Source of the DNA: Dehalococcoidia bacterium
Lineage (GTDB): Bacteria; Chloroflexota; Dehalococcoidia; Lucifugimonadales; JADFKI01
Assembly (NCBI GenBank): GCA_965204445.1
Contig: OZ241992.1
Span: 988,095-1,052,094 of the forward strand
Reading direction: 5' to 3'
DNA: 64,000 nt
Positions 3,200-51,417 of this stretch are shown here, one piece after another (the first letter of the stretch is position 1; every line of letters begins with the position of its first letter). The notes under the pieces were generated by a model. That model was not told the origin of the DNA. It saw nothing but the letters and a program-made list of their open reading frames with translations, and did no database searches. The translations under genes were made by a program, and so were the position numbers.

Positions 3200-4507
3200 A
3201 TGCGCTACCTAATTCTACCCTCCCGGAAGTATGTTAACGCGTTGCGAGCGACAACTCGAACCGCGCTGCGGATGGCGGCTTGGAACGCTCTGTTCATCAT
3301 CTCAGGTCTGCTGCTGATTGCGCTTGCCGGCGAGGCGTACTTTCGGTTGACAAGGCCCTTTATGCAGACTAGCGCTCATTTTCAGTTCGTAGATGGAGTT
3401 GGGCTTATCCGGGAACCCAACTCTGAATTGCGCTATACGAACTTGAGCGAGGATATATACACCGCTTCGCGCATCAATAGCCAGGGCTTTCTCGACCGCG
3501 AACCCGTCAGCGCTGAACGCGCCGCCGAGGGTTGCCGCATAGCCTTCATCGGCGATTCTTTCGTGGAAGGGCGGGAGGCGCCCATCGCCGATAAATTTCA
3601 TGTCAGACTGGAAGAGATGGCGGCGCGCGAACTGCCGCATTTGAACATTGCCACGCAGTCTTATGGAATATGGGGCACAGGCCAAATACATCAGCTTCCG
3701 TTTTACGATAACTACGCACGGCATCTGAACCCGAAATTGGTTGTGCTGAGCTTCCATCTCAATGACTTCGTCGACAATTCAACTGCGCTGCGTTCGCTAA
3801 GGTTCGGCCTAGATCCTGACCGAATGCCATATACGTCCGCTCAAAAAGACGCGAGCGGGGTTATGAAACTGCGCCCGCCCGATCCGGAATATCAGCGGTT
3901 TATACTGCCAAGGCCGCCGAAGCAACCGAAGTCCTGGCGCGAGAATGCGCATGATCGGCTGCTTCGGGTTTCATACTTTGCGATATGGCTGAATGAAAAG
4001 AATATATGGCGGGCATCAGCAAGAGACCACAGGAAGCCCGATCGTGCGGCGTGGGCGGCTACAATAGCCGAGCGTCCCTGTTGCGCATCACTAGCAGACT
4101 GGCGACCTAGCGAAAACTTCCCTTTTACAACGGACGCGGAGCGCGAAAAAGATCCTTTTACGAGGGACGCGCAACTATCGCCCGTCTATGAAGAAGCGCT
4201 GGAATACACCGCTTTCGGCATAGAGCAGTTCAAGCAGCGCGCCGACCGCGACGGCGCTGCGCTTGCAATACTTGCAGCCACCGATAGTATGGGAACGCGG
4301 GACGATCCTCAGTTCGAGCGCCTAAACTCCATTGCCGAACCGCTCGGCATTCCCGTAATCAGCCAGTACGATTACGTCCTCAGACAGGGACACAATTACC
4401 AGGACGCCCGATGGCATTACGACTTCCATTGGAACGCCACCGGACACCAATGGGCGGCCGAAGCCATCCTCGAATGGTTGAAAGAAAACCAAGAGGTGTG
4501 CGACTGA
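3200..4507 (+). CDS. Membrane-anchored SGNH / AlgJ-AlgX-like hydrolase or acyltransferase, paralogue 2
   Basis: Same architecture as 1603..2910 (IAFIGDSFVEGRE, YDFHWNATGHQW). The upstream about 120 bp is also duplicated. A 2-bp difference near the ancestral ATG (3175) moves the start to 3200. Confidence 0.6.
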   Translation: MRYLILPSRKYVNALRATTRTALRMAAWNALFIISGLLLIALAGEAYFRLTRPFMQTSAHFQFVDGVGLIREPNSELRYTNLSEDIYTASRINSQGFLDREPVSAERAAEGCRIAFIGDSFVEGREAPIADKFHVRLEEMAARELPHLNIATQSYGIWGTGQIHQLPFYDNYARHLNPKLVVLSFHLNDFVDNSTALRSLRFGLDPDRMPYTSAQKDASGVMKLRPPDPEYQRFILPRPPKQPKSWRENAHDRLLRVSYFAIWLNEKNIWRASARDHRKPDRAAWAATIAERPCCASLADWRPSENFPFTTDAEREKDPFTRDAQLSPVYEEALEYTAFGIEQFKQRADRDGAALAILAATDSMGTRDDPQFERLNSIAEPLGIPVISQYDYVLRQGHNYQDARWHYDFHWNATGHQWAAEAILEWLKENQEVCD

Positions 4508-21629: not shown

Positions 21630-22472
21630 ATGGACATAGGAATCTCGACCTTCCCCACCGACTACTCAGTCGACATAGCCACCTTGGCGAAGCGCGCAGA
21701 GCAACTCGGCTTCGAATCGCTGTGGGTGCCGGAGCATCCCATCCTGCCCGTTCACGCCAACTCCCCCTGGCCCGGCTCCCCCGACGGCGTCATACCCAAA
21801 GTCTATGCCGACATCGTCGACCCATTCGTGGCGCTGGCGCGCGCATCCGCCGTTACCGACACCCTCAAGCTGGGAACCGGCATCTGCCTTGTAACCGAGC
21901 GCAACCCCCTGCTGCTGGCGAAAGAGATTGCCACCCTAGATATGTACTCCAAAGGCCGCTTCCTGTTCGGCATCGGCACCGGCTGGCACCGCGAAGAGAC
22001 CGAAATTATGGGCGGCGACTTCGACCACCGCTGGACGCAGGCGCGCGAAGCGATTATGGCGATGAAGCAGCTCTGGACAACGGTTGAGAGCGAATTCCAC
22101 GGCAAGTATTACGACTTCCCGCCCGTCTATTCGTTCCCACGCCCGGCGCAGCGCCCGCATCCGCCCGTGTTCCTAGGCGGCATGGCGCGCAACGTGTTCC
22201 GCCGCGTCGCCGACTACGGCGACGGCTGGATGCCCAACCGCGTTACCCCGCAGCAAGTCAAGCAAGGACGCGCCGCCATCACCGAACTAGCGCAAGCCGC
22301 GGGCAGAGATCCGGCGTCCATCAACGTGTCCGTGTTCGGCCAGCCCGCCGACCGCGATCTGATAGCCCAACTCCAAGAAGCCGGCGCAGACCGCGTTATG
22401 GTGCGCCTAGAAACCGCCCCCGAAGCCGAAGCCCTCGCAAACCTGGAAAGCATCGCCGAAGCCGTGCTATAA
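21630..22472 (+). CDS. LLM-class (luciferase-like) F420/flavin-dependent oxidoreductase
   Basis: MDIGISTFPTDYSVDIATLAKRAEQLGFESLWVPEHPILP..., GRFLFGIGTGW. RBS AGGAGA lies 9 nt upstream. Confidence 0.85.
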   Translation: MDIGISTFPTDYSVDIATLAKRAEQLGFESLWVPEHPILPVHANSPWPGSPDGVIPKVYADIVDPFVALARASAVTDTLKLGTGICLVTERNPLLLAKEIATLDMYSKGRFLFGIGTGWHREETEIMGGDFDHRWTQAREAIMAMKQLWTTVESEFHGKYYDFPPVYSFPRPAQRPHPPVFLGGMARNVFRRVADYGDGWMPNRVTPQQVKQGRAAITELAQAAGRDPASINVSVFGQPADRDLIAQLQEAGADRVMVRLETAPEAEALANLESIAEAVL

Positions 22473-22542: not shown

Positions 22543-23586
22543 CTATCCAAACAACGGCATCACCCGGTCGGCGAACAGGCGCATCGACGCCTGCACCCGC
22601 TCCGTGTCCATTTCCCCCGTGTTGAACTTCAGCATCAGGTTGCGCACGCCCGCGTCGCGCATCTCCGCTATCTCATCCGCCACCTGGCGCGGCGTCCCCG
22701 CGATAAACGCCTTGCCTATATCCTCCGAATCCGACGCCGGCGCTATATCGCTGTCCGACGGCTTGGGCGCGAATTCGGCGGGATTGTAGAGACGTCGCGC
22801 GTCTCCGAAATGCTTGCGCTCGCGCGCGAACCCGTACTCCGCCATCTCGCGCGCCTCCCCATAGGTGTCCGCCACAAACACATTGCGCGACGCCCAGCAC
22901 ATATCCAGCGCCGCCTCCACCGCGTTTTCCCCGAAACCCGCGCTCAGCATCGCATCGCGATAGCCCCTAAGACGGCTCGCCAGCGTCTGCGGCGGCATTA
23001 TCCCCAGCATCACCGGCCGCCCTATCCGCGCCATCGCCAGCGTGGACGCCTCGCTTATGCACGCCCGCACAAGCGGCGGATGCGGCTTCTGATACGGCGG
23101 CGGACGCAGCATCGGAAACGCCACCCGCCAGTGTTCCCCTTCATGCCGCAAGTCTTTCGCAGTCCAAGCCTTCACCAGCAGATCCTCCGCTTCCTCTACG
23201 CGGTCTATCCCGTCCTGCATACTCAGCCCGAACCCAATGTACTCATAATGATTGAACGCCGATCCCCGCCCAATGCCCACAATCAGCCTGCCGTGGCACA
23301 GGTTATCCAGCAGCGCCGTCTGCGCCGCAAGCCGAATGGGATGATGCAGCGCCAATTCCACCACCGCGAACCCAATCCGAATTTGCCGCGTGCGCGCCGC
23401 CACCGCAGCCCCCATCACCAGCGGATCGGCGTACGCCACCGCCCCGTCAAAGTGATGCTCCGTAAGCCAAACCGCATGCAGCCCCACAGCGTCCGCCAGC
23501 TCAATCTCGCGCAGCGTCCCGTCTATCACGCCGCCATCCCCGCCCGGATTGTGGCTTACCGGAAATACAAACGAACCGAACCGCAT
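22543..23586 (-). CDS. LLM-class (luciferase-like) flavin-dependent oxidoreductase
   Basis: MRFGSFVFPVSHNPGGDG..., LHAVWLTEHHFDG, GRLIVGIGRGS. ATG 23586 lies 8 nt after GGAGG. The 59-aa upstream extension in the ORF track is rejected. Confidence 0.85.
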   Translation of the reverse strand: MRFGSFVFPVSHNPGGDGGVIDGTLREIELADAVGLHAVWLTEHHFDGAVAYADPLVMGAAVAARTRQIRIGFAVVELALHHPIRLAAQTALLDNLCHGRLIVGIGRGSAFNHYEYIGFGLSMQDGIDRVEEAEDLLVKAWTAKDLRHEGEHWRVAFPMLRPPPYQKPHPPLVRACISEASTLAMARIGRPVMLGIMPPQTLASRLRGYRDAMLSAGFGENAVEAALDMCWASRNVFVADTYGEAREMAEYGFARERKHFGDARRLYNPAEFAPKPSDSDIAPASDSEDIGKAFIAGTPRQVADEIAEMRDAGVRNLMLKFNTGEMDTERVQASMRLFADRVMPLFG

Positions 23587-23829
23587 CGTCAAAGCCTCCA
23601 TATAAGTATGCCGGTGCGCCGATATGCCGAATGCGCCAACCGCGCCTTGCGTATCGCGCAACCGCCCTTTCGCAAGTGCCGAATACGCCAAGCGCATCTT
23701 GCAACCGCCCTTTCGCAAGCGCCAACCAAGTATAACCCAATCGCCCCCCGTCTTGCCTTGCATTCAAGCCGTGAACCGCATCCGCCGCAAGCAAAACCCA
23801 ATCGGCGCGCATCTTGTTCTGCCACCCGG

Positions 23830-26026: not shown

Positions 26027-26144
26027 CTAGGGCAACGGAATAAGACACACATGCGTGGGCGGCTTGACGCGCTGCCCTCAAACCGCCCCCTCTCCGCCAT
26101 ACGCCTAGCGCATACCTAACCAGCAATTCCAACCGGCAACAACT

Positions 26145-26192
26145 AGCCCTGCGGCAATCGGACGCATGTATCCGATTGCCGCAGGGCTTTTC
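26145..26192 (+). terminator. Rho-independent terminator downstream of the GLUG-protein gene
   Basis: Perfect 18-bp stem agccctgcggcaatcgga / tccgattgccgcagggct with loop cgcatgta, followed by TTTT. Confidence 0.8.
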
Positions 26193-26407
26193 GCATTATT
26201 GCGGGCGTCTGCGGTTTGAGCGCGGCAAGCCCGGCATTCACATAATTGAGTGCAGTCATGCGCCTCAACTTTATGAATGCCGGACGACTAGCCGAATTGC
26301 GTTTGGGGCGGCGCCTGGTGTAGCCTAAAAGCGTAAATCGGCAATCGGCAGTCTGCGCCGTTACCCTGCGCGCAAACGCAACGAACTATATCTATGAGGT
26401 TGGAACT

Positions 26408-27253
26408 ATGACAACGCAAGGCTACGCAAATCCCGATCTGCTGGTGGAAACGGACTGGCTGGCAGAGCGGCTCGACGACCCCAACATACGCATCGTGGAC
26501 TGCGATCCGCTGGACGCCTACGGGCGCGCTCACATCAAGAACGCCATCGGCATACCCGTCCACCACTACATCAAAGAGGAAGGCTACGACGCCGATCCGC
26601 GCGCCAATCCGTTAGTTGCGCCGCCCGACCGAATGAAAAGCCTGATGGAAAGCATGGGCATCGGCGACGACAACCTAGTGGTGGCATACGATAGCAACGG
26701 CTCCCTTTGGTCAACGCGCTTCTGGTGGGTTCTCAACTACTACGGGCATACCAACGCCAAAGTTCTCAACGGCGGTTGGAAGAAGTGGCACGATGAGGGG
26801 CGTCCCACTTCCATCACAATACCGCAGTTTGACGCGCCTACCTTCACGCCCAACGCCGACGACGGCTTGGTGTGTACGCTTGACTACGGCGTCGCCAATG
26901 TGGGCAACCCCGATGTGCTGTTCCTGGATGTGCGCTCCGACGGCGAGTGGGACGGCAGCAACACCCGCGGCAACAAGCGCGGCGGGCGCATCCCCGGCGC
27001 AGTTCACCTCGAATGGCTGAACTTCATAACCGACGACAGCCATCAGACGATTAAGCCGGCGGCCGAACTGCGCGCAATGTTGGAATCGGTGGGCGCAACG
27101 CCCGAAAAGGAAGTGGTAACCTATTGACAGGGCGGCATCCGTGCGGCGCACGGAGTATTCGTACTGAAGCTGCTAGGCTACAACAGGGCGCGCAACTACG
27201 ACGGCTCAATGGGCGAGTGGGCTAACCGCGACGATACGCCGCTTGTGGTGTAG
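26408..27253 (+). CDS. Two-domain rhodanese (thiosulfate/3-mercaptopyruvate sulfurtransferase family) with in-frame TGA at the catalytic Cys position; candidate selenoprotein or nonsense pseudogene
   Basis: The ORF 26408..27127 ends ...EKEVVTY-TGA. The same frame continues QGGIRAAHGVFVLKLLGYNRARNYDGSMGEWANRDDTPLVV-TAG (27251-27253). Together this reconstitutes the rhodanese active-site loop VVTY[C/U]QGGIRA and a normal total length of about 281 aa. Confidence 0.75.
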
Positions 27254-27363
27254 CGCAATGGCGCAACCGGGGATGACGCAATGGGCGCCCTGCAGAACAA
27301 GTTCAGCGCATCGGGCAAGAGGTTGGCGGCGCGCGGCGTATAACCAGGCGACGGACGGCGCAA

Positions 27364-28476
27364 CTACAGGCGCTTGAGCGCCGCCGCCAGCGATTCGCCG
27401 AGCTGCCGCCGCTGCCAATTGCGCACGGCGTCGTCCGCCATCTCAGCGTCCAGTTCGCGCGGATGCAACGATAGGCGATCGAGGCTCGCTAGGGGCCACA
27501 CCAGCCCGGGGTCGAGCGCAAGCCGCTTGGCGTTCGACGCCCGCCACTCTTTGAGCAACCTAAGGCGTTTGCGCGCCGAACTGCGCTCATCCGGGGTTGC
27601 GCGATGCCCGTTTGCGGCGAAGCTGCGCTTGGGACGCTTGAACGGACCGGCTTCGATCCCCTCGCGCAATGCCCGTCGCACGCCCGACGAGTATCGACCG
27701 CGCGCATAGCGGCCGAGTCCCTTCACCTTGCTCAGATCGGAGCGCGGATTTGCCGCCAGCGCAAGCATCGCGGCGTCGGAGAATACCTTGAACGGCGGAC
27801 GGTCGCGGCGCAGCGCCTCAACTTCGCGGAACATATACAGCGATTGCAGCGCCGCCAAGCCCTTGCCGTCCAAAGCGCCGCTGCCCTTCACGGACAGAAA
27901 GCCCATCTCTATATCGGGCGGCGTGTACTCCACATTGGCGAGCCGCTCGCACTCTTCCGCCACCCAATCCGTTCTGCCCAGTTCGGCAAGCTTTTGGCGC
28001 AAAAGCGCGGTCAGGCGTTCGAGATATATCACATCATCGGCGGCGTACCGCACCTGCTCATCCGAAAGCGGGCGCAGCGTCCAATCGGCGCGCTGCAGCT
28101 TCTTGGACTTGTTCACTTCCACGCCCAGATACTCTTGCAGAACCGCCCCCAAGCCAAGCCTGTCGGAGCCGGCGAATGCGGCGGCGATGCCGGTATCGAA
28201 CAGCGGCCGAATGCGAAAGCCCCAATCGCGCTGCAGGCTTCGCACATCGTGATTGGCGGCGTGGAATATCTTCTCTACGGACGGCGCGGCAAGCAGTTCG
28301 CCAAGCGGCGCAAGCTCTTGCGGGTCAAGCGTATCAAGCGGGTCTATGAGGAAGACGCCGTCCGCTGTGGCGAGTTGCACAAGGCATATGCGCTCAGGGT
28401 AGCGGTAGAAGCCGTTGGACTCGATGTCCAAAGCAACGCGCGGCTGCTTCAGCGCGGACGCCACAACCGCGCCCAA
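27364..28476 (-). CDS. rnd: Ribonuclease D (DEDD 3'-5' exonuclease + HRDC domain)
   Basis: ALDIESNGFYRYPERICLVQLAT, HAANHDVRSL, QRADWTLRPLSDEQVRYAADDVIYL, and an HRDC-like C-terminus. The TTG start at 28476 is the first canonical start, but the frame stays open upstream and keeps looking like an RNase D N-terminus (see findings). Confidence 0.85.
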   Translation of the reverse strand: MGAVVASALKQPRVALDIESNGFYRYPERICLVQLATADGVFLIDPLDTLDPQELAPLGELLAAPSVEKIFHAANHDVRSLQRDWGFRIRPLFDTGIAAAFAGSDRLGLGAVLQEYLGVEVNKSKKLQRADWTLRPLSDEQVRYAADDVIYLERLTALLRQKLAELGRTDWVAEECERLANVEYTPPDIEMGFLSVKGSGALDGKGLAALQSLYMFREVEALRRDRPPFKVFSDAAMLALAANPRSDLSKVKGLGRYARGRYSSGVRRALREGIEAGPFKRPKRSFAANGHRATPDERSSARKRLRLLKEWRASNAKRLALDPGLVWPLASLDRLSLHPRELDAEMADDAVRNWQRRQLGESLAAALKRL

Positions 28477-28582
28477 CCGCGACGCCGTTGTGATAATCTC
28501 TACTTTGCCTGTATCGCCTTGCGCGGGAATTATGCGGAAGCATCCTATCGCTATTAGGGGTAGGTAGCAGGGGGCAAAACGC

Positions 28583-28657
28583 TGGCTCCGCAGGTAGGAT
28601 TCGAACCTACGGCCGATCGGTTAACAGCCGATTGCTCTACCACTGAGCTACTGCGGA
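28583..28657 (-). tRNA. tRNA-Asn (anticodon GTT), CCA encoded
   Basis: Manual cloverleaf: TCCGCAG-TA-GCTC-AGTGGTA-GAGC-A-ATCGG-CTGTTAA-CCGAT-CGGCC-GTAGG-TTCGAAT-CCTAC-CTGCGGA-G-CCA, 75 nt. Confidence 0.92.
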
Positions 28658-28707
28658 GCGTGAATGCGCGCGTCGGATATGCAACGGACGCGCCGAAACC
28701 TGCATTT

Positions 28708-28736
28708 ATGATAGCATTGCCAAATCTTTTGGACAA
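28708..28736 (-). promoter_or_regulatory. Possible promoter of tRNA-Asn (TTGTCC-17 nt-TATCAT on minus strand)
   Basis: The reverse complement of 28731-28736 is ttgtcc, and that of 28708-28713 is tatcat. It lies about 50 nt upstream of the tRNA 5' end. Confidence 0.35.
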
Positions 28737-29015
28737 GGTTTTTGGCGATATTATTCGGATTGCGAATTATATTGAATGCGGCGATGGCGCAATGAAAGGC
28801 GCAAAGCGCAAGCCATTGTTGGCACGAGTTAAACTATTGTTGCAACACAATAGACGCTAACATAACGACGGTTGTCAGTGATGTATGACTTTCTCAAAGA
28901 GCGCTCCGATGCGTGCGCCAAATCCGAATATCAATTCAGAAAGTTCGCGGATTAGGGTTGCCGCGCGCCGCCGTCAATCAAATGCCGTCGATTCAAGACG
29001 AAATCGGAGGGGCAT

Positions 29016-35380: not shown

Positions 35381-37729
35381 CTAATCGACCCTGAACTCCG
35401 TCGGAAGCGCGTACTCTGACTTCTCTATTATTTCCTCAGGAACCTTCAGGTCTGTGCCGTACTTAATGCCTATCACTTCTTCATTGTAGGTTTGGCACCA
35501 GTCCCTGTCGTTGGATGTGCGAGTCCACGTATAGCGATCGACTTCGTAAGTCGATTCATCTACAACTAGCGTTATTTCAAGGGTTTCGTCTATTCCCCAT
35601 TCAATAAATGGGTTGTCATAGCGAATTTCTAGCGTTATCTTTCCGTCTGACCGATCCACCGCTTTCACATCGTATTCGTCAGCGAAACCGCCGTTGTTAT
35701 CGGTCAATCGGAAGTTGCTGTAGAGCAACTGGCCGAGCGATCTGTGAAGTTTGGCGTTTCCGAGGGGCCAATTGGTTGAATCACGGAGTTGCTCTCGGCT
35801 AATCTTTGTCCAACTACCTGATACTTTAGTCCAATGCTGCCAACCGTCAGCATCATCAGCATAGGCTTCGTCTGAGTGAAAGATGAAGAACGATTTGCCG
35901 CCTTCGCGCAAATAGGCTATCTGAGAGTCATCGATCCCGTCGCCCCAACGCAGGAAATGGCTTATCTCATATGCAGCCCAGTCAGGATACCCAAACGCTC
36001 CGCCGCAATTGGCGTCTAGCCAGCCACCTCTAAGCTTCATCCACATTGACCCCGCGTGCCGCAAAGTGGCGTAAGTCCGCTCAAGGAATTTATGCAGGTC
36101 AAAGTCTTCCTGCGGGCTGTCCAGAAGTTCATCCCTGAGAACTGTGAGTTTTCTTACCTCGCTCATGGTCATCCCGGGTTCAACCAGTGGATGAGAGTTA
36201 AGCGCGAGTATCGCTTTGTCCATATATGTGAGGTAACCCATACCGGCCATAACGCTGATTACGTTGCTAAATTCGGCGTGCGACGTAGGCGCAAGCGCAT
36301 GCAACCCTTCGTGAAGAATCACCGCCGTCATATAGGACTTCAGCTTTTCATAATCGGTTAGGTTTGGATCTTCATCTTCACCTTGAAATATAGTGAAAGC
36401 GCCGCCGTCAACCACTGACCAGTTGCCTCTATTGTCTTGTGTAAGACTGGTTGGGCCTCCAAAGCCCCAGCAGTATTCACATCTTTTCCATTCACGGTCA
36501 TCATCGAGTGGTTTTCGGAATGTTGCCACAAAGTCGGCGTCAGCCTTGTTATCGACCCACTGAAACTCAAGGTTAAGCAAGGGCGCAAGCCGCTCATCAA
36601 AGATTTCTTTAGTGGATCGGATGTAGTTCGGGTGGCCTTCTCCATAAACTTTGACAACGGATCCGCTGCGCCACTTTTCCACGACGTCCGAGCGCCATCC
36701 GTAACATCCGTGATTTCCTTCATAGTTTCTTGATTTATCCCTATCGCTATAACATTCCCACACTTCCCGTTCCACGCCTAGGATGCGCTCCGGCACAACC
36801 ACATTCACGGTCAAAGCCGTATCACCGCCGTAGTCTATATCAAGCGCGGCGTTTCCCATAGGCAGACGCAGCGCGAGGTTGGATTCGCCCGCGCTAAATC
36901 CGTCGGGCAGCGCTATTTCCGTCGTCCCGCCGCAATCCTCAATCGGGCTGCCATCTCGCGCGCAAGATATGGCGATGCGCTGCGTTTCCTCATAGGGCAG
37001 CCTGCCCTCATTTCGCAGCGATAGCGCTACATTCACATTTGCCGTTCCATCAGACCAGAAACCCGCAATCGAAGTCATAGCGTTTAGCTTTAGCAGCGTC
37101 GGAACGCGCGTCGATGTTGGCGTTGGAATGATTTTTGCGACGGTGGTTGCGGTGGCTTTTGTAACGTCCTCTAGCCTTGGGGAGAGTGGGGGCGTTGGCG
37201 GCGCAGAGATTGTAGGCAGCGGCGTGGGCAACGTGGGTGGCGTGGGAAACACCGATGGCGGCGTGGGCAGCGGCTCAAGCGTAGGCGGCAGTTGCGGCGG
37301 CGTAGGAAACGACGTCGGCAGCGCGGGCGGCGTGGGGGGAACCATGATGAACGGCGTCGCGCTAGGGCTTGGAGTAGGCGGCGGCGTAGATGTTGGCGGC
37401 GCAGGAACGCCGGCGGCCGTGGTGGTGGCGCGCACGCTGGCGTCTATCGTCGCTTGCGCATTCGGCGTATTCGTGGGCATTATTGTTGAAGTAGCGGTTG
37501 GAACTGCCATTGGCGCAAGTTGCGTCAGCGTCGTCGGCACGGGCAAGCCCTGTCCCGAAGAGGCGTAATACCAGGCGGCCGCAGCGCCTGTCGCGATTAT
37601 CAGCAGCGCCGCAATGCCTGGCGCGGAGCCGAATGTGTTGTGGCAGCGGCGGCAGCGGTATCTATTGAACAGGTGAAACTTGTATCGCTTGCGCGTGTTT
37701 CGACTTTCGCAGCGGGGACACTTTTTCAT
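35381..37729 (-). CDS. Membrane-anchored protein: cytoplasmic zinc ribbon, TM helix, Pro/Thr-rich linker, extracytoplasmic domain with a metzincin-like HExxH motif
   Basis: MKKCPRCESRNTRKRYKFHLFNRYRCRRCHNTF, TM GIAALLIIATGAAAAWYYA, linker PPTSTPPPTPSPSATP...PTPPTLPTPLPT, then AVILHEGLHALAPTSHAEF...SVMAGMGY. The C-terminal about 1.4 kb is visibly less GC-rich than its surroundings. Confidence 0.6.
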   Translation of the reverse strand: MKKCPRCESRNTRKRYKFHLFNRYRCRRCHNTFGSAPGIAALLIIATGAAAAWYYASSGQGLPVPTTLTQLAPMAVPTATSTIMPTNTPNAQATIDASVRATTTAAGVPAPPTSTPPPTPSPSATPFIMVPPTPPALPTSFPTPPQLPPTLEPLPTPPSVFPTPPTLPTPLPTISAPPTPPLSPRLEDVTKATATTVAKIIPTPTSTRVPTLLKLNAMTSIAGFWSDGTANVNVALSLRNEGRLPYEETQRIAISCARDGSPIEDCGGTTEIALPDGFSAGESNLALRLPMGNAALDIDYGGDTALTVNVVVPERILGVEREVWECYSDRDKSRNYEGNHGCYGWRSDVVEKWRSGSVVKVYGEGHPNYIRSTKEIFDERLAPLLNLEFQWVDNKADADFVATFRKPLDDDREWKRCEYCWGFGGPTSLTQDNRGNWSVVDGGAFTIFQGEDEDPNLTDYEKLKSYMTAVILHEGLHALAPTSHAEFSNVISVMAGMGYLTYMDKAILALNSHPLVEPGMTMSEVRKLTVLRDELLDSPQEDFDLHKFLERTYATLRHAGSMWMKLRGGWLDANCGGAFGYPDWAAYEISHFLRWGDGIDDSQIAYLREGGKSFFIFHSDEAYADDADGWQHWTKVSGSWTKISREQLRDSTNWPLGNAKLHRSLGQLLYSNFRLTDNNGGFADEYDVKAVDRSDGKITLEIRYDNPFIEWGIDETLEITLVVDESTYEVDRYTWTRTSNDRDWCQTYNEEVIGIKYGTDLKVPEEIIEKSEYALPTEFRVD

Positions 37730-37983
37730 TTTCTTCTCAATCAGCGGCGCTGCCCTTTAAGCGCATTCATTGCCTCAATCGTAGCGTCTTGTTCGGATAC
37801 GGCGTAGCGCATTATGCTGGATTGTAGCACATTCATATGCGGTAGCCGGTTCGCCCGATTTGCGCCGAAAGCCCGCAAGTATTACCATAGGGGCGCAAGC
37901 CGCCCAACTTATGCGGCGAAAGTCCGCGAGGGCGCGGCTGACAACGAACTCATACGGCATATCACAGCAGGAGGCGCAAACGG

Positions 37984-38745
37984 ATGCACAACTACACTAC
38001 CGATATGTATGAAGGGATGCTGGCGGAGACTATCACGATTAACGGGAATAACGGCGATGCGATTAACGCCTACTACGCCCGTCCGCTGGGCGAGGGTCCG
38101 TTCCCCGGGATGGTTCTGATTCACCACCTGCCGGGTTGGGATGAGCTCTACCGCGAGTTCACGCGCAAGTTCGCGCATCACGGCTATATCGCAATCTCGC
38201 CCGATCTGTATCACCGCTTCGGCAGCGGCTCGCCCGACGATGTGGCGGCGAAAGCGCGCGGCGAAGGCGGCGCTCCCGACGACCAGGTGGTGGGCGATAT
38301 GTCGGCGGCGGCGGCGTATATCCGCTCGCTGCCGTATGCCAGCGGCAAGGTGGGCGTAATCGGTTCGTGTTCGGGCGGACGGCACGCCTTCCTGTGCGCC
38401 TGCCGCTCGACGTCGTTTGACGCCGCCATAGAGCTTTGGGGCGGGCGCGTGGTGCAGGCGTCGGACGACTGCCCGCCACAGCAGCCGGTAGCGCCCATCG
38501 ACTACACCGCCGATCTGTCCTGCCCGCTGCTGGGGCTGTTCGGCGCAGAAGACCAGAGCCCCACGCCGGCGCAGGTGGCGCAGCATGAGCAGGCGCTCAA
38601 AGACGCCGGCAAGGACTACGAGTTCCATATGTACGAGGGCGCCGGACACGGCTTCTTCTACTACGACCGCGGGGCGTATCGCCAAGAGCAGGCGGTTGAC
38701 GGCTGGAACAAGGTGTTCGCCTTCGCAGCCAAGCATCTGGCGTAG
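37984..38745 (+). CDS. Dienelactone hydrolase family protein
   Basis: PFPGMVLIHHLPGWDE, VGVIGSCSGGRHAF (nucleophile elbow with Cys), HMYEGAGHGFF. RBS AGGAGG. Confidence 0.85.
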   Translation: MHNYTTDMYEGMLAETITINGNNGDAINAYYARPLGEGPFPGMVLIHHLPGWDELYREFTRKFAHHGYIAISPDLYHRFGSGSPDDVAAKARGEGGAPDDQVVGDMSAAAAYIRSLPYASGKVGVIGSCSGGRHAFLCACRSTSFDAAIELWGGRVVQASDDCPPQQPVAPIDYTADLSCPLLGLFGAEDQSPTPAQVAQHEQALKDAGKDYEFHMYEGAGHGFFYYDRGAYRQEQAVDGWNKVFAFAAKHLA

Positions 38746-38815
38746 GGGATGCAATAGCGCCGACGTCGGAAGCGCGCGCTACACCGCTTCCGGCGCTGGC
38801 ACTTCGTTAAGCGGG

Positions 38816-48018: not shown

Positions 48019-51000
48019 CTAACCCGTCCGATAGCGCCGATAGCGCCGCCATACGCTCCATGCCATATACGCCGCAGCGGGGATTAGCAGCAGCCACAGC
48101 GGGAAGCCGTCGTCGTCCGGCATATTCGTCAGCGTGGCGCGCGCCATTTCGACCGTTGGCGCGGCCGCTAACGCCGTCGCGCCCGTCTGAGGCGCGGCGG
48201 TGGCGACAAGCGCAATAATGGATGCGAGCGCGGGTGTTGCGCTAGGCGTCGCCGTGGGCTCATGCGTAGCGCTAGGCGCGCGCTCAACCACAAGCGTCGT
48301 CGCGGCGGTGGGCGTCGCGCTCGGCGTGTATGTGCGCGTTGCCGTAACGCTTGCCGTAGGCGTAGCCGCCGGCGATGCAGCCGTCGCACTCGGAGCAGCC
48401 GTAGCGTTGGGCGTCGCCGTGCTGCCCCTGACCAACGCCGCAACGCTCGACGCAGGCGCCGCCGATACGCCGCCCCCAACCGACGGCGTGGCTGTAACCC
48501 GAGCCGCCGCCGTAGCCGTCGATATCGGCGTTGAGGTCGACGTCGGCGCTGCCGTAGGCGTATAAGCGCGAAGCGCGGTTGCCGTAGGCGTGGGCGCGAT
48601 CGTCGCCGTGGATGTCGGCATTGTCGTGGGCGCGAGCGTTGCCGTCGGCATTGCCATAGGCATGCGCGTGCGAGCGGGCGTCGGCGTGCGCCTTGAGCCT
48701 GATCCCCCGCCGCCGTAACTAGGTCTATATGTAGCCGTCGGCGTTGGCGTATGCGTCGTGGTTGGCACATGCGTCGCGATTGGCATTACGCCGATGGGCT
48801 CCGACTCTAGAAAGGCAGACGTCGGCGTGGGAGTGGGCGTGCCGGTGGCGGTAGGCGTATGCGTCGCCGTGGGCGTGCCGGTGGCCGTGGGCGTATGCGT
48901 AGCGGTGTATGTTGCGGTAGGCGTATGCGTTGCCGGCGGACCTTCATAGATGGGGACTGCGCCGGCCCTTGCCTGATTCGTTGGTGTTGGCGTTGGCGTC
49001 GCTGTTGGCTCTGTTCCGCCGGGAGCGCCGGCGGAAACCTCCGTGGGCGTAGCGGTGTGTGTGGCGGTGGCGGTAGGCGTGCCGGTAGCAGTGGGCGTAT
49101 GCGTGGCGGTGGGTGTAGGCGTGGGCGTGCCGGTAGCGGTGGGCGTAGCCGTGGCCGTGCCAGTTGCGGTAGGCGTGTGCGTAGAGGTAGGCGTATGTGT
49201 AGCCGTGGGCGTGCCGGTCGCAGTGGGCGTATGCGTGGCGGTGTGAGTAGCGGTAGGCGTCGGCGTAGCCGTGGCTGTAGCCGTGCCGGTTGCAGTAGGC
49301 GTAGCCGTGGCTGTAGGCGTGGGAGTTGGCGTGTCGGGGAGAAACTCTCGATCAAGAAGAAGAATACCGACATTTGAGGTCGGCGTGGGCGTAGGCGTGC
49401 CAGTTGCAGTAGGCGTATGCGTGGCGGTGGGCGTGCCGGTTGCAGTGGGCGTATGCGTGGCGGTGTGAGTTGCGGTAGGCGTGTGCGTAGGCGTGCCGGT
49501 AGCAGTGGGCGTAGCCGTGGCCGTGCCGGTTGCGGTAGGCGTATGTGTAGCCGTGGGCGTGTGTGTAGCGGTAGGCGTGCCGGTCGCAGTTGGCGTAGCC
49601 GTGGCGGTAGGCGTGGGAGTTGGCGTGTCGGGGAGAAACTCTCGATCAAGAAGAAGAATACCGACATTTGAGGTCGGCGTGGGCGTAGGCGTGCCAGTTG
49701 CAGTAGGCGTATGTGTAGCCGTGGGCGTGCCAGTAGCAGTTGGCGTAGCTGTGGCGGTAGGCGTGGGAGTAGGCGTGCCGGTAGCTGTGGCGGTAGGCGT
49801 GCCGGTAGCTGTGGGCGTAGGCGTAGGCGTGCCGGTGGCGGTGGCAGTGGGCGTAGCCGTTGCGGTAGGCGTAGCGGTGGCAGTTGGCGTGCCGGTCGCG
49901 GTAGGCGTATGCGTTGCGGTGTGTGTAGCCGTTGCGGTAGGCGTATGCGTTGCGGTGTGTGTAGCCGTTGCGGTAGGCGTATGCGTTGCGGTGTGTGTAG
50001 CGGTAGGCGTAGCCGTGGCAGTAGGTGTAGCGGTGGGCGTGGCCGTGGGCGTAGGCGTAGCCGTGCCGGTAGCAGTTGGCGTAGGTGTAGGCGTGGCGGT
50101 GGCGGTTGGCGTAGCCGTGGCGGTAGGCGTATGCGTTGCGGTGTGTGTAGCGGTAGGCGTAGCCGTTGCGGTATGTGTAGCGGTGGCAGTGCGCGTAGCC
50201 GTGGGCGTGCCGGTCGCAGTAGGTGTAGGCGTGCCGGTGGCAGTAGGCGTTCTTGTAGGCGTGCCGGTGGCAGTAGGCGTAGGCGTAGGCGTGCCGGTTG
50301 CGGTCGGCGTTCTTGTAGGCGTGTATGTCTCGGTAATCCAAAAGCGAGAGGGCGTATGCGTAGCAGTGGGCGTGCTCGTCGCGGCGCCTCCGGGCAACTC
50401 ATTGACCGGGAATAGCCTATCAGGCGTGTGCGTAGGGGTGGGCGTGCCTTCCTGTACGGGCGGACCCGGCGGAAGTGGCGGACGCGGCTTATCGCCAGGC
50501 AACAGAAAATCAGACGTAGGCGTGGCAGTTGGCGTGCCGGTTGCGGTAGGTGTGCCGGTAGCGGTCGGCGTGCCTGTGGAAGTTGGCGTAGGCGTTGGTG
50601 TGCCAGTTGCAGTAGGCGTGCCGGTGGCAGTTGGCGTAGGCGTGCCGGTTGCGGTTGGCGTTCGTGTAGGCGTGGATGTCTCGATAACCCAAAAGCGATC
50701 GGGCGTATCCGTAGCCGTGGGCGTGCTTGTCGCGGTGGCTCCGGGCAGCTCATTGCCCGGGAATAGCCTTTCAGGCGTGTGCGTAGGGGTGGGCGTGCCT
50801 CCCTGTACAGGCGGACCCGGCGGGCGCGGCTCATCGCCAGGCAACAGAAAATCAGGCGTATGCGTGGCGGTAGGCGTGCCGGTGGCAGTGGGCGTAGGCG
50901 TGCCGGTGGCGGTTGGCGTAGGCGTGATGGTGCCTGTAGCGGTTGGCGTGGAAGTTTCTATAACAACCGCCGGCGTGTTCGTTGGGTCAACCCCGACGCC

Positions 51001-51417
51001 AATGTTGTTGTTGCGGGGCGTGTTCGTCGGCGTAGGCGTGGGTGTAGCCGTGCTCGCCGGATCAATTCCTACGCCGACTCCGACGCCGCTATCTCTATCG
51101 CTATCGGGCGTGTTCGTCGGCGTAGGCGTCGGATTGCCTGGTTGCGGCTGTGGCGGCGGCGGTGGCTGCTGCTCATCCGGGAACTGGTTCGTGCGCGGGC
51201 TGAACCGGCTATCAACGGCCGGCGTCCGCGTAGGGGTTGGCGTGCGCGTGAACGCTGCGCTTCTCAAAACGCCGCCCGTCTCAGGCGCGGCCGCCCACGA
51301 CGTCGTCAGCGGATTGCTGCTTGAAACCTGCGCCAGCGCGACCGGCAACGCAATCGCCAGCAATGCGCCGAACACCAGCCGAACTATAGAGCGCCTAACG
51401 CGAGGGGAGGGGGACAA
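48019..51417 (-). CDS. Giant Thr/Pro/Ala-rich repeat surface protein (signal peptide + C-terminal TM anchor), mucin-like
   Basis: N-terminal [24 protein letters not shown]. Hundreds of [16 protein letters not shown]-type units. C-terminal [26 protein letters not shown]. Of the overlapping ORFs, only this frame has sensible termini. Confidence 0.7.
49298..49714. repeat. Two near-identical ~123-bp segments spaced 294 bp apart inside the Thr/Pro-rich gene (encode [37 protein letters not shown])
   Basis: Direct comparison of 49298-49420 with 49592-49714 shows 1-2 mismatches. Confidence 0.85.
50291..50855. repeat. Two ~215-bp ~90 %-identical segments spaced 351 bp apart inside the Thr/Pro-rich gene (encode ...[32 protein letters not shown]...[16 protein letters not shown])
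   Basis: Direct comparison of 50291-50512 with 50642-50855; one 11-nt indel. Confidence 0.8.

Follow-up and report, generated by a model that had tools for sequence, protein, structure and literature searches.

The stretch of DNA analysed here (the window, 64 kb in length) carries on its plus strand a gene for a rhodanese-type sulfurtransferase whose reading frame contains a TGA codon in its last part. The features of this locus are listed below, with the kind of evidence on which each assignment rests.

26396-26399, plus strand: possible Shine-Dalgarno sequence GAGG, 8 nt before the ATG (inferred from reading the sequence).
26408-27253, plus strand: complete coding sequence of a predicted selenoprotein, two-domain rhodanese-type sulfurtransferase of 281 aa with Sec at residue 240 (translation, Pfam, PDB alignment, tblastn).
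27122-27128, plus strand: UGA context TAT-TGA-C (codon counts over 135 loci).
27125-27127, plus strand: in-frame TGA, predicted Sec codon, at the catalytic position of the active-site loop U-Q-G-G-I-R-A.
27128-27250, plus strand: post-Sec segment of 41 codons that completes the catalytic rhodanese domain (conservation, alignment to solved rhodaneses).
27138-27154, plus strand: predicted bacterial SECIS hairpin of 7 bp with a GGC loop, core 27139-27153, lying within codons +4 to +9 (I-R-A-A-H-G) (fold, entropy, pairing).
27251-27253, plus strand: true stop codon TAG (sequence and translation).

Translation from the ATG at 26408 ends in ...PEKEVVTY before the TGA at 27125-27127, and the frame beyond the TGA reads QGGIRAAHGVFVLKLLGYNRARNYDGSMGEWANRDDTPLVV, 41 codons, up to the TAG at 27251-27253. 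The original prediction had described an ORF at 26408-27127, its TGA and a continuation in the same frame to that TAG, and these coordinates were right on re-reading; its expectation that read-through would give a two-domain rhodanese of about 281 aa was also borne out, since the product has 281 residues and two Pfam Rhodanese domains (E = 1.3e-35). The tandem arrangement that characterizes TST/MST proteins, a pair of rhodanese domains of which the C-terminal one carries the catalytic residue, is thus present. Matches by tblastn in 80 genomes cover query residues 1-281. Past the TGA the frame has no start codon before +28, which makes separate initiation downstream unlikely. The top NCBIfam match is 3-mercaptopyruvate sulfurtransferase, at 103 bits far under the cut-off of 250; NCBIfam holds no model specific to the Sec-rhodanese clade, and an exact look-up found no entry on record for the window's 239-aa product.

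When the read-through product is aligned with rhodaneses of solved structure, the TGA column coincides with the catalytic Cys of Thermus thermophilus rhodanese 1uar (E = 1.8e-45) and of Azotobacter vinelandii RhdA 1e0c (E = 5.7e-39), where VTY-U-QGGIRA stands against VVYCRIAERS (1uar) and VTHCQTHHRS (1e0c). Homologues of the Cys form have TGC or TGT at this column. The TGA had been predicted to occupy the position of the catalytic Cys, with Cys/Sec pairs at its column as a check; such pairs are found with 1uar, 1e0c and the Cys-form homologues, and by these alignments the UGA is homologous to the catalytic Cys. The alignments to PDB homologues span about residues 5-280 of 281; they reach approximately to the C-terminus, and thus the 41 codons after the TGA are the end of the catalytic domain. 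The window protein resembles 1uar and 1e0c in its two-domain architecture, in aligning with them over its full length and in having its catalytic residue at the same column, and an Arg lies five residues past the catalytic position in all three loops (CRIAERS, CQTHHRS and UQGGIRA); however, both solved proteins have Cys where the window protein has its predicted Sec, and the loop sequence differs as well. The classical active-site loops are CRKGVTA in TST and CG[ST]GVTA in MST. UQGGIRA matches neither, and is nearer to the loops of RhdA (CQTHHRS) and 1uar (CRIAERS). Because the loop is unlike those of TST and MST and the NCBIfam match is below threshold, we assign no substrate to this putative sulfurtransferase.

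A frame of this kind might also be a pseudogene, in which a Cys rhodanese had been cut to 239 aa by a nonsense mutation (TGC to TGA) and the frame downstream is a decaying remnant, and from one sequence that reading and a Sec gene are indistinguishable. A protein search with the read-through product gave 3634 homologues; lengths were taken from the best 120, of which about 115 are 236-241 aa long. Ten homologue sequences were read. Eight are short forms that all end in ...TY, which indicates that gene callers stopped at the same codon, and two (P0088 and P0109) are full-length Cys forms with TYCQ(A/G)GIRAAHG. A genome scan with one genome per species yielded 80 loci, hosted by Dehalococcoidia/SAR202, Candidatus Binatia, Entotheonella, Deltaproteobacteria and Thermodesulfobacteriota MAGs; to two Dehalococcoidia MAGs (L001 and L002) the window is about 92% identical in nucleotide sequence over 26028-28790. 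The Sec column is TGA in 80/80 of the fetched genome loci and is followed in them by 41-45 conserved in-frame codons. A metagenome scan seeded with the Cys form P0088 contributed 55 further TGA forms and about 25 Cys forms. TGA is therefore found in 135/135 Sec-form loci examined (80 from genomes and 55 from metagenomes), from several phyla and with protein identities that range from 96% down to roughly 40-50%. By these counts, predicted Sec forms far outnumber Cys forms in this rhodanese clade.

Mean pairwise amino-acid identity among 81 genome sequences is 70% upstream of the TGA and 86% downstream of it, and the downstream minor-allele fractions at codon positions 1, 2 and 3 are 0.10, 0.08 and 0.38. 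This conservation, the variation at third positions and the lack of a start codon before +28 argue that the downstream segment is translated in the same protein. As judged from the comparison, the codons after the TGA are under purifying selection and read-through of the TGA is required. A decaying remnant should not be better conserved than the part before it, nor should the TGA recur at one column in 135 independent loci of such divergence, and a truncated form would leave the catalytic domain without its C-terminal part; the chance that the gene is a pseudogene is so slight that we regard this alternative, raised with the original prediction, as excluded. Conservation of the downstream codons had been proposed as a check at that time, and 41-45 of them are kept with no degradation seen.

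The hairpin tccgtgc-GGC-gcacgga starts 11 nt past the TGA, and its loop lies 18-20 nt past it. The isolated hairpin folds at -9.9 kcal/mol (z = -3.1). A wider stretch of 66 nt folds no better than shuffles (z = -0.24), which taken by itself would speak for a pseudogene. Perfect hairpins with a stem of 7 bp or more, a G within the first two loop positions and SECIS spacing accompany 12 of the 1504 TGA trinucleotides (0.8%) of the window, which is GC-rich. Seen in one sequence alone the hairpin is only suggestive, and the comparative data are decisive. Among 72 distinct Sec-form sequences, 96.6% of the cells of the 7-bp helix are paired. Pair 15-29 is CG in 63 of them, AU in 4, GC in 2 and UG in 2; at pair 14-30, 58 have UA and 2 have GC. 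Several of these compensating substitutions are non-synonymous (Gly to Val, Ile to Gly or Val, Gly to Ala). Most hairpin columns are invariant, and the covariation comes from two pairs in few lineages. With the other stem columns mostly invariant, the argument leans more on frozen synonymous sites (below) than on covariation. A lower stem in the single-sequence MFE structure was dropped, since RNAalifold on the first 60 sequences recovered 5/7 pairs and no conserved lower stem.

The E. coli minimal SECIS is a 17-nt element at a spacing of about 11 nt, an arrangement that the window hairpin mirrors. It resembles SECIS elements of the E. coli fdhF type in being a short stem-loop that sits within the coding sequence directly after the UGA and has G residues in its small apical loop. 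Unlike those elements, the window hairpin has a 3-nt GGC loop on a perfect 6-7-bp stem with no bulged U, and SelB binding is putative here. In the bSECIS model of a 2026 review (PMC13188914), the apical loop has 3-9 nt and the upper stem 4-16 bp, G occurs in the first two loop positions, the UGA-to-loop distance is 16-37 nt and the MFE is -7.5 kcal/mol or lower. On all four counts the hairpin lies within the model: a 3-nt loop, which is the model's lower limit, on a 7-bp stem; a loop that starts with GG; 17 nt between UGA and loop; and a folding energy of -9.9 kcal/mol. The original prediction had described a 7-bp hairpin at 27138-27154 at bacterial SECIS spacing, had called for a SECIS test and had named lack of conservation as a possible refutation. 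The hairpin and its spacing were confirmed, the published model accommodates it, and it is conserved, with compensatory changes that keep the pairing.

Selection on this short region is most easily seen in synonymous codon use. In a codon alignment of 81 genes, synonymous-use entropy was calculated at 142 conserved degenerate codon columns, and the eight lowest values of the whole gene fall at codons -1, +1, +4, +5, +6, +7, +8 and +9 (Mann-Whitney p = 1.8e-5). CGT encodes Arg +5 in 95% of the genes but makes up 6% of the other Arg codons; for GGA at Gly +9 the two figures are 87% and 13%, and Ala-Ala-His is GCG GCG CAC in 81/81. Tyr -1 is encoded by TAT in all 81 genome loci (116 of the 135 loci in total); elsewhere in the gene TAC makes up 74% of Tyr codons and TAT 26%. 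The nucleotide directly 3' of the TGA is C in 135/135 loci. These eight frozen codons are the context of the UGA and the hairpin, and the codon comparison thus shows the two to be selected together. Over at least four phyla the hairpin has hardly changed. The preference for TAT at 27122-27124 of the window, and in the corresponding codon of L001-L080, suggests that the base preceding the UGA is under selection.

The Cys forms provide a built-in control, as they encode the same peptide and have no hairpin. At most 4 pairs are formed in 11/13 scorable Cys forms, whereas 6 or 7 pairs are formed in 134/135 Sec forms. In L150 and L159, two of the Cys forms, CGG and GCC codons specify the same G-R-A-A-H peptide, and only 3-4 of the 7 pairs are formed. 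The hairpin is retained in two Cys forms, L081 and L082. L081 (281-1126, the gene of P0088, with TGC) is 99% identical to L083 (1001-1843, with TGA), which comes from a different assembly; the hairpin is intact, and around the catalytic codon the local sequence is otherwise identical. The difference between these loci is either a very recent Sec/Cys switch or a difference between assemblies. By its sequence L081 looks like a very recent conversion and not like a counter-example, and L082 may be a similar recent case.

These controls bear on the idea that the UGA is read through without SelB, by near-cognate leakage or under a reassigned code, and that the hairpin slows the ribosome or is conserved for reasons other than decoding. 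A UGA with C after it is usually considered a weak context for termination, and the invariant C after the TGA would suit such leakage. However, the hairpin tracks TGA as opposed to TGC or TGT even where the peptide is identical, which is evidence against this explanation, and it lies within every range of the SECIS model; the recoded position is, moreover, exactly that of a catalytic Cys. A change of code is contradicted by the ordinary TGA stops of the window, which end 10/40 long ORFs including rpoB, so the genetic code is not reassigned. We consider SelB-free read-through very improbable.

No tRNA-Sec was found in the 64-kb window (ARAGORN, Rfam) or in the window plus the 80 loci (ARAGORN, 1.58 Mb), and a search of the window and these loci for any tRNA with a UCA anticodon was also negative. 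Pfam searches of 38 window ORFs detected no selA, selB or selD, and neither did tblastn searches of the 20-kb flanks of the 80 genome loci, for which the probes were approximate E. coli SelD, SelA and SelB sequences. The sole tblastn match, a 408-aa ORF of L062, is probably EF-Tu and not SelB, in a layout that resembles a tuf-nusG-rplKAJ cluster. A crude scan of the window for an in-frame TGA that splits a long ORF gave no convincing case of a second selenoprotein. That no Sec machinery was found within the 64-kb window is a further point that a pseudogene would explain; SelA, SelB and SelD are reported for related genomes. One of the genome loci (L003) is MPND01000034.1, a contig of SAR202 bin90, and encodes a protein 84% identical to that of the window, with both the TGA and the hairpin present. 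Bin90 is a SAR202 bin from the sponge Aplysina aerophoba (Slaby et al. 2017, PMC5649159, Table 2), for which the authors list 3 SelA (COG1921), 1 SelB (COG3276) and 1 SelD (COG0709) (Table S4). SelA, SelB and SelD are listed there for each of five SAR202 bins, and SelA and SelB occur together in most of the sponge-symbiont bins across phyla (PMC5649159). Chloroflexi are among the groups with known tRNA-Sec species (PMC5389517).

A hairpin and a SelB-type factor could in principle also serve to insert Cys or some other residue, by means of an unusual tRNA with a UCA anticodon, a type that tRNA-Sec searches have turned up (PMC5389517). Sequence analysis does not identify the inserted residue, and tRNA-Sec species with unusual structures have been reported from Chloroflexi (PMC5389517), which leaves some room for this proposal. 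Against it, the Sec-specific proteins SelA and SelD are reported for bin90 and the other four SAR202 bins (PMC5649159), and the search for UCA-anticodon tRNAs in the window and the 80 loci gave none. The rarity of Cys-coding versions in the clade also argues that the product of the UGA differs from Cys. Insertion of a residue other than Sec thus appears highly unlikely.

Selenoproteins of this type have been described before. Zhang, Fomenko and Gladyshev reported three genes for rhodanese-related sulfurtransferase (COG2897) selenoproteins from the Sargasso Sea in 2005 (PMC1088965), and their supplement gives ...VTYuQGGIRAAHVMFVL...YDGSMGEWANRDDTPLIK for AACY01110644, TYuQGGIRAAHVF for AACY01314374 and TYuQAGVRAAHANF for AACY01016424. 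The DNA of the three genes reads TA(T/C) TGA CA(G/A) ... CGT GCG GCG CA(C/T), and the outer pairs show additional compensating variants. The Sec column and its flanks (TYuQ.G.RAAH) are those of the window protein (TY-U-QGGIRAAH), and the hairpin core, CGTGC-GGC-GCA(C/T)G, is also as in the window; its 3' strand is GCACG in two of the genes and GCATG, with a G-U wobble, in AACY01314374. The C-terminal motif YDGSMGEWAN..DTPL is common to the published family and the window protein, which is 50-53% identical to the Sargasso members over the published fragments. The published members are anonymous ocean fragments, whereas the window copy belongs to a genome of the SAR202/Dehalococcoidia type whose nearest relatives are uncultured Dehalococcoidia MAGs; we find nothing categorical that sets them apart. 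The same family was found in Olavius symbionts in 2007 (PMC1976440) and in the GOS data in 2008 (PMC2398784). The 2026 review lists a rhodanese-like form with a UxxG motif, citing the 2005 study (PMC13188914), and this is probably the same family; the window protein likewise combines a rhodanese fold with U-Q-G-G at the catalytic position. The representative named in the review, MCY3690685.1, was absent from the cluster members listed when it was sought for a clade match. We found no report in the literature of experimental proof of selenium in any family member. The family has thus been known since 2005, and the window gene is a further member of a computationally defined family. The original prediction was correct that Sec rhodaneses have been reported from marine metagenomes, and by the flanks, the hairpin core and the 50-53% identity they are of the same family.

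These findings make it very probable that the gene at 26408-27253 encodes a tandem-rhodanese selenoprotein in which Sec (U240) is inserted by means of the UGA and the SECIS hairpin, and that it is an orthologue of the COG2897 family of 2005. Strong support for a Sec-decoding gene, as opposed to a pseudogene, comes from the TGA in 135 loci, from the hairpin that is selected with it and from the agreement with the bSECIS model. We infer the identity of the inserted residue (Sec), the binding of SelB to the hairpin and the Se-S chemistry of the enzyme. During translation, the hairpin at 27138-27154, with its apical loop GGC, would act as a bacterial SECIS; SelB-GTP carrying Sec-tRNA(Sec) would bind to it and deliver Sec to the UGA in competition with RF2, and translation would then run for 41 codons to the TAG and complete the catalytic domain. 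In the finished protein, the selenolate of U240 in the loop U-Q-G-G-I-R would accept sulfane sulfur as an Se-S intermediate and pass this sulfur to an acceptor, analogous to the persulfide of Cys rhodaneses.

The value of this result is mainly for annotation. Public sets hold well over a hundred copies of the protein cut at residue 239, which removes the catalytic residue together with the last 41 residues, and a selenoprotein with a wide distribution among SAR202, Binatia and Entotheonella genomes is thereby overlooked by gene callers. Cut entries are found among P0001-P0120 and include MCI0438648.1; one such entry carries the nr name 'hypothetical protein'. For comparative work, the family also offers a clean case of a minimal 17-nt bacterial SECIS within the codons just past an active-site loop. 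What is known of selenoproteins is unchanged by the finding. Sponge symbionts seem to account for many of the host genomes; in one case the sponge is Aplysina aerophoba (Slaby et al.), and in some others a sponge origin is presumed from the style of the bin names. A broader and more speculative interpretation, which we regard as possible but doubtful, is that Sec is nearly fixed in this enzyme over at least four phyla, that the RNA pairing of the hairpin and the protein co-evolve, that the Se-S intermediate would serve an uncharacterised trafficking of sulfur or selenium, maybe in the metabolism of sulfated compounds, and that L083/L081 would be a reversion in progress. The link to sulfated compounds is suggested because an arylsulfotransferase-like gene follows the rhodanese gene in 32/81 loci. 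In those loci the ASST-like gene (373 aa, for example L060 10992-12113) is on the same strand, about 60 nt past the rhodanese gene, with which it may cooperate functionally in some subclades; the window has no such gene.

The gene neighbourhood as a whole is not conserved across the family. The ASST-like gene, an MFS transporter or metH is adjacent in particular subclades only, and with a neighbourhood that varies in this way the context gives no firm clue to function. In the window, an RNase D-like gene (27364-28476, minus strand) converges on the rhodanese gene, and it adjoins the only tRNA of the window, tRNA-Asn (GTT) at 28583-28657 on the minus strand. ORFs at 35381-37729 (782 aa), 37909-38754 (281 aa) and 48019-51417 (1132 aa), all on the minus strand, gave no Pfam match, and the gene call of the 1132-aa frame is uncertain, since it shares its stretch with long ORFs in other frames. 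Two adjacent ORFs of 435 aa on the plus strand (1603-2910 and 3200-4507) both have weak sub-threshold matches to GDSL lipases and may be tandem paralogues. The luciferase-like flavin monooxygenase family is much expanded in SAR202, and the window carries two such genes close by each other on opposite strands, at 21630-22472 (plus strand) and 22543-23763 (minus strand).
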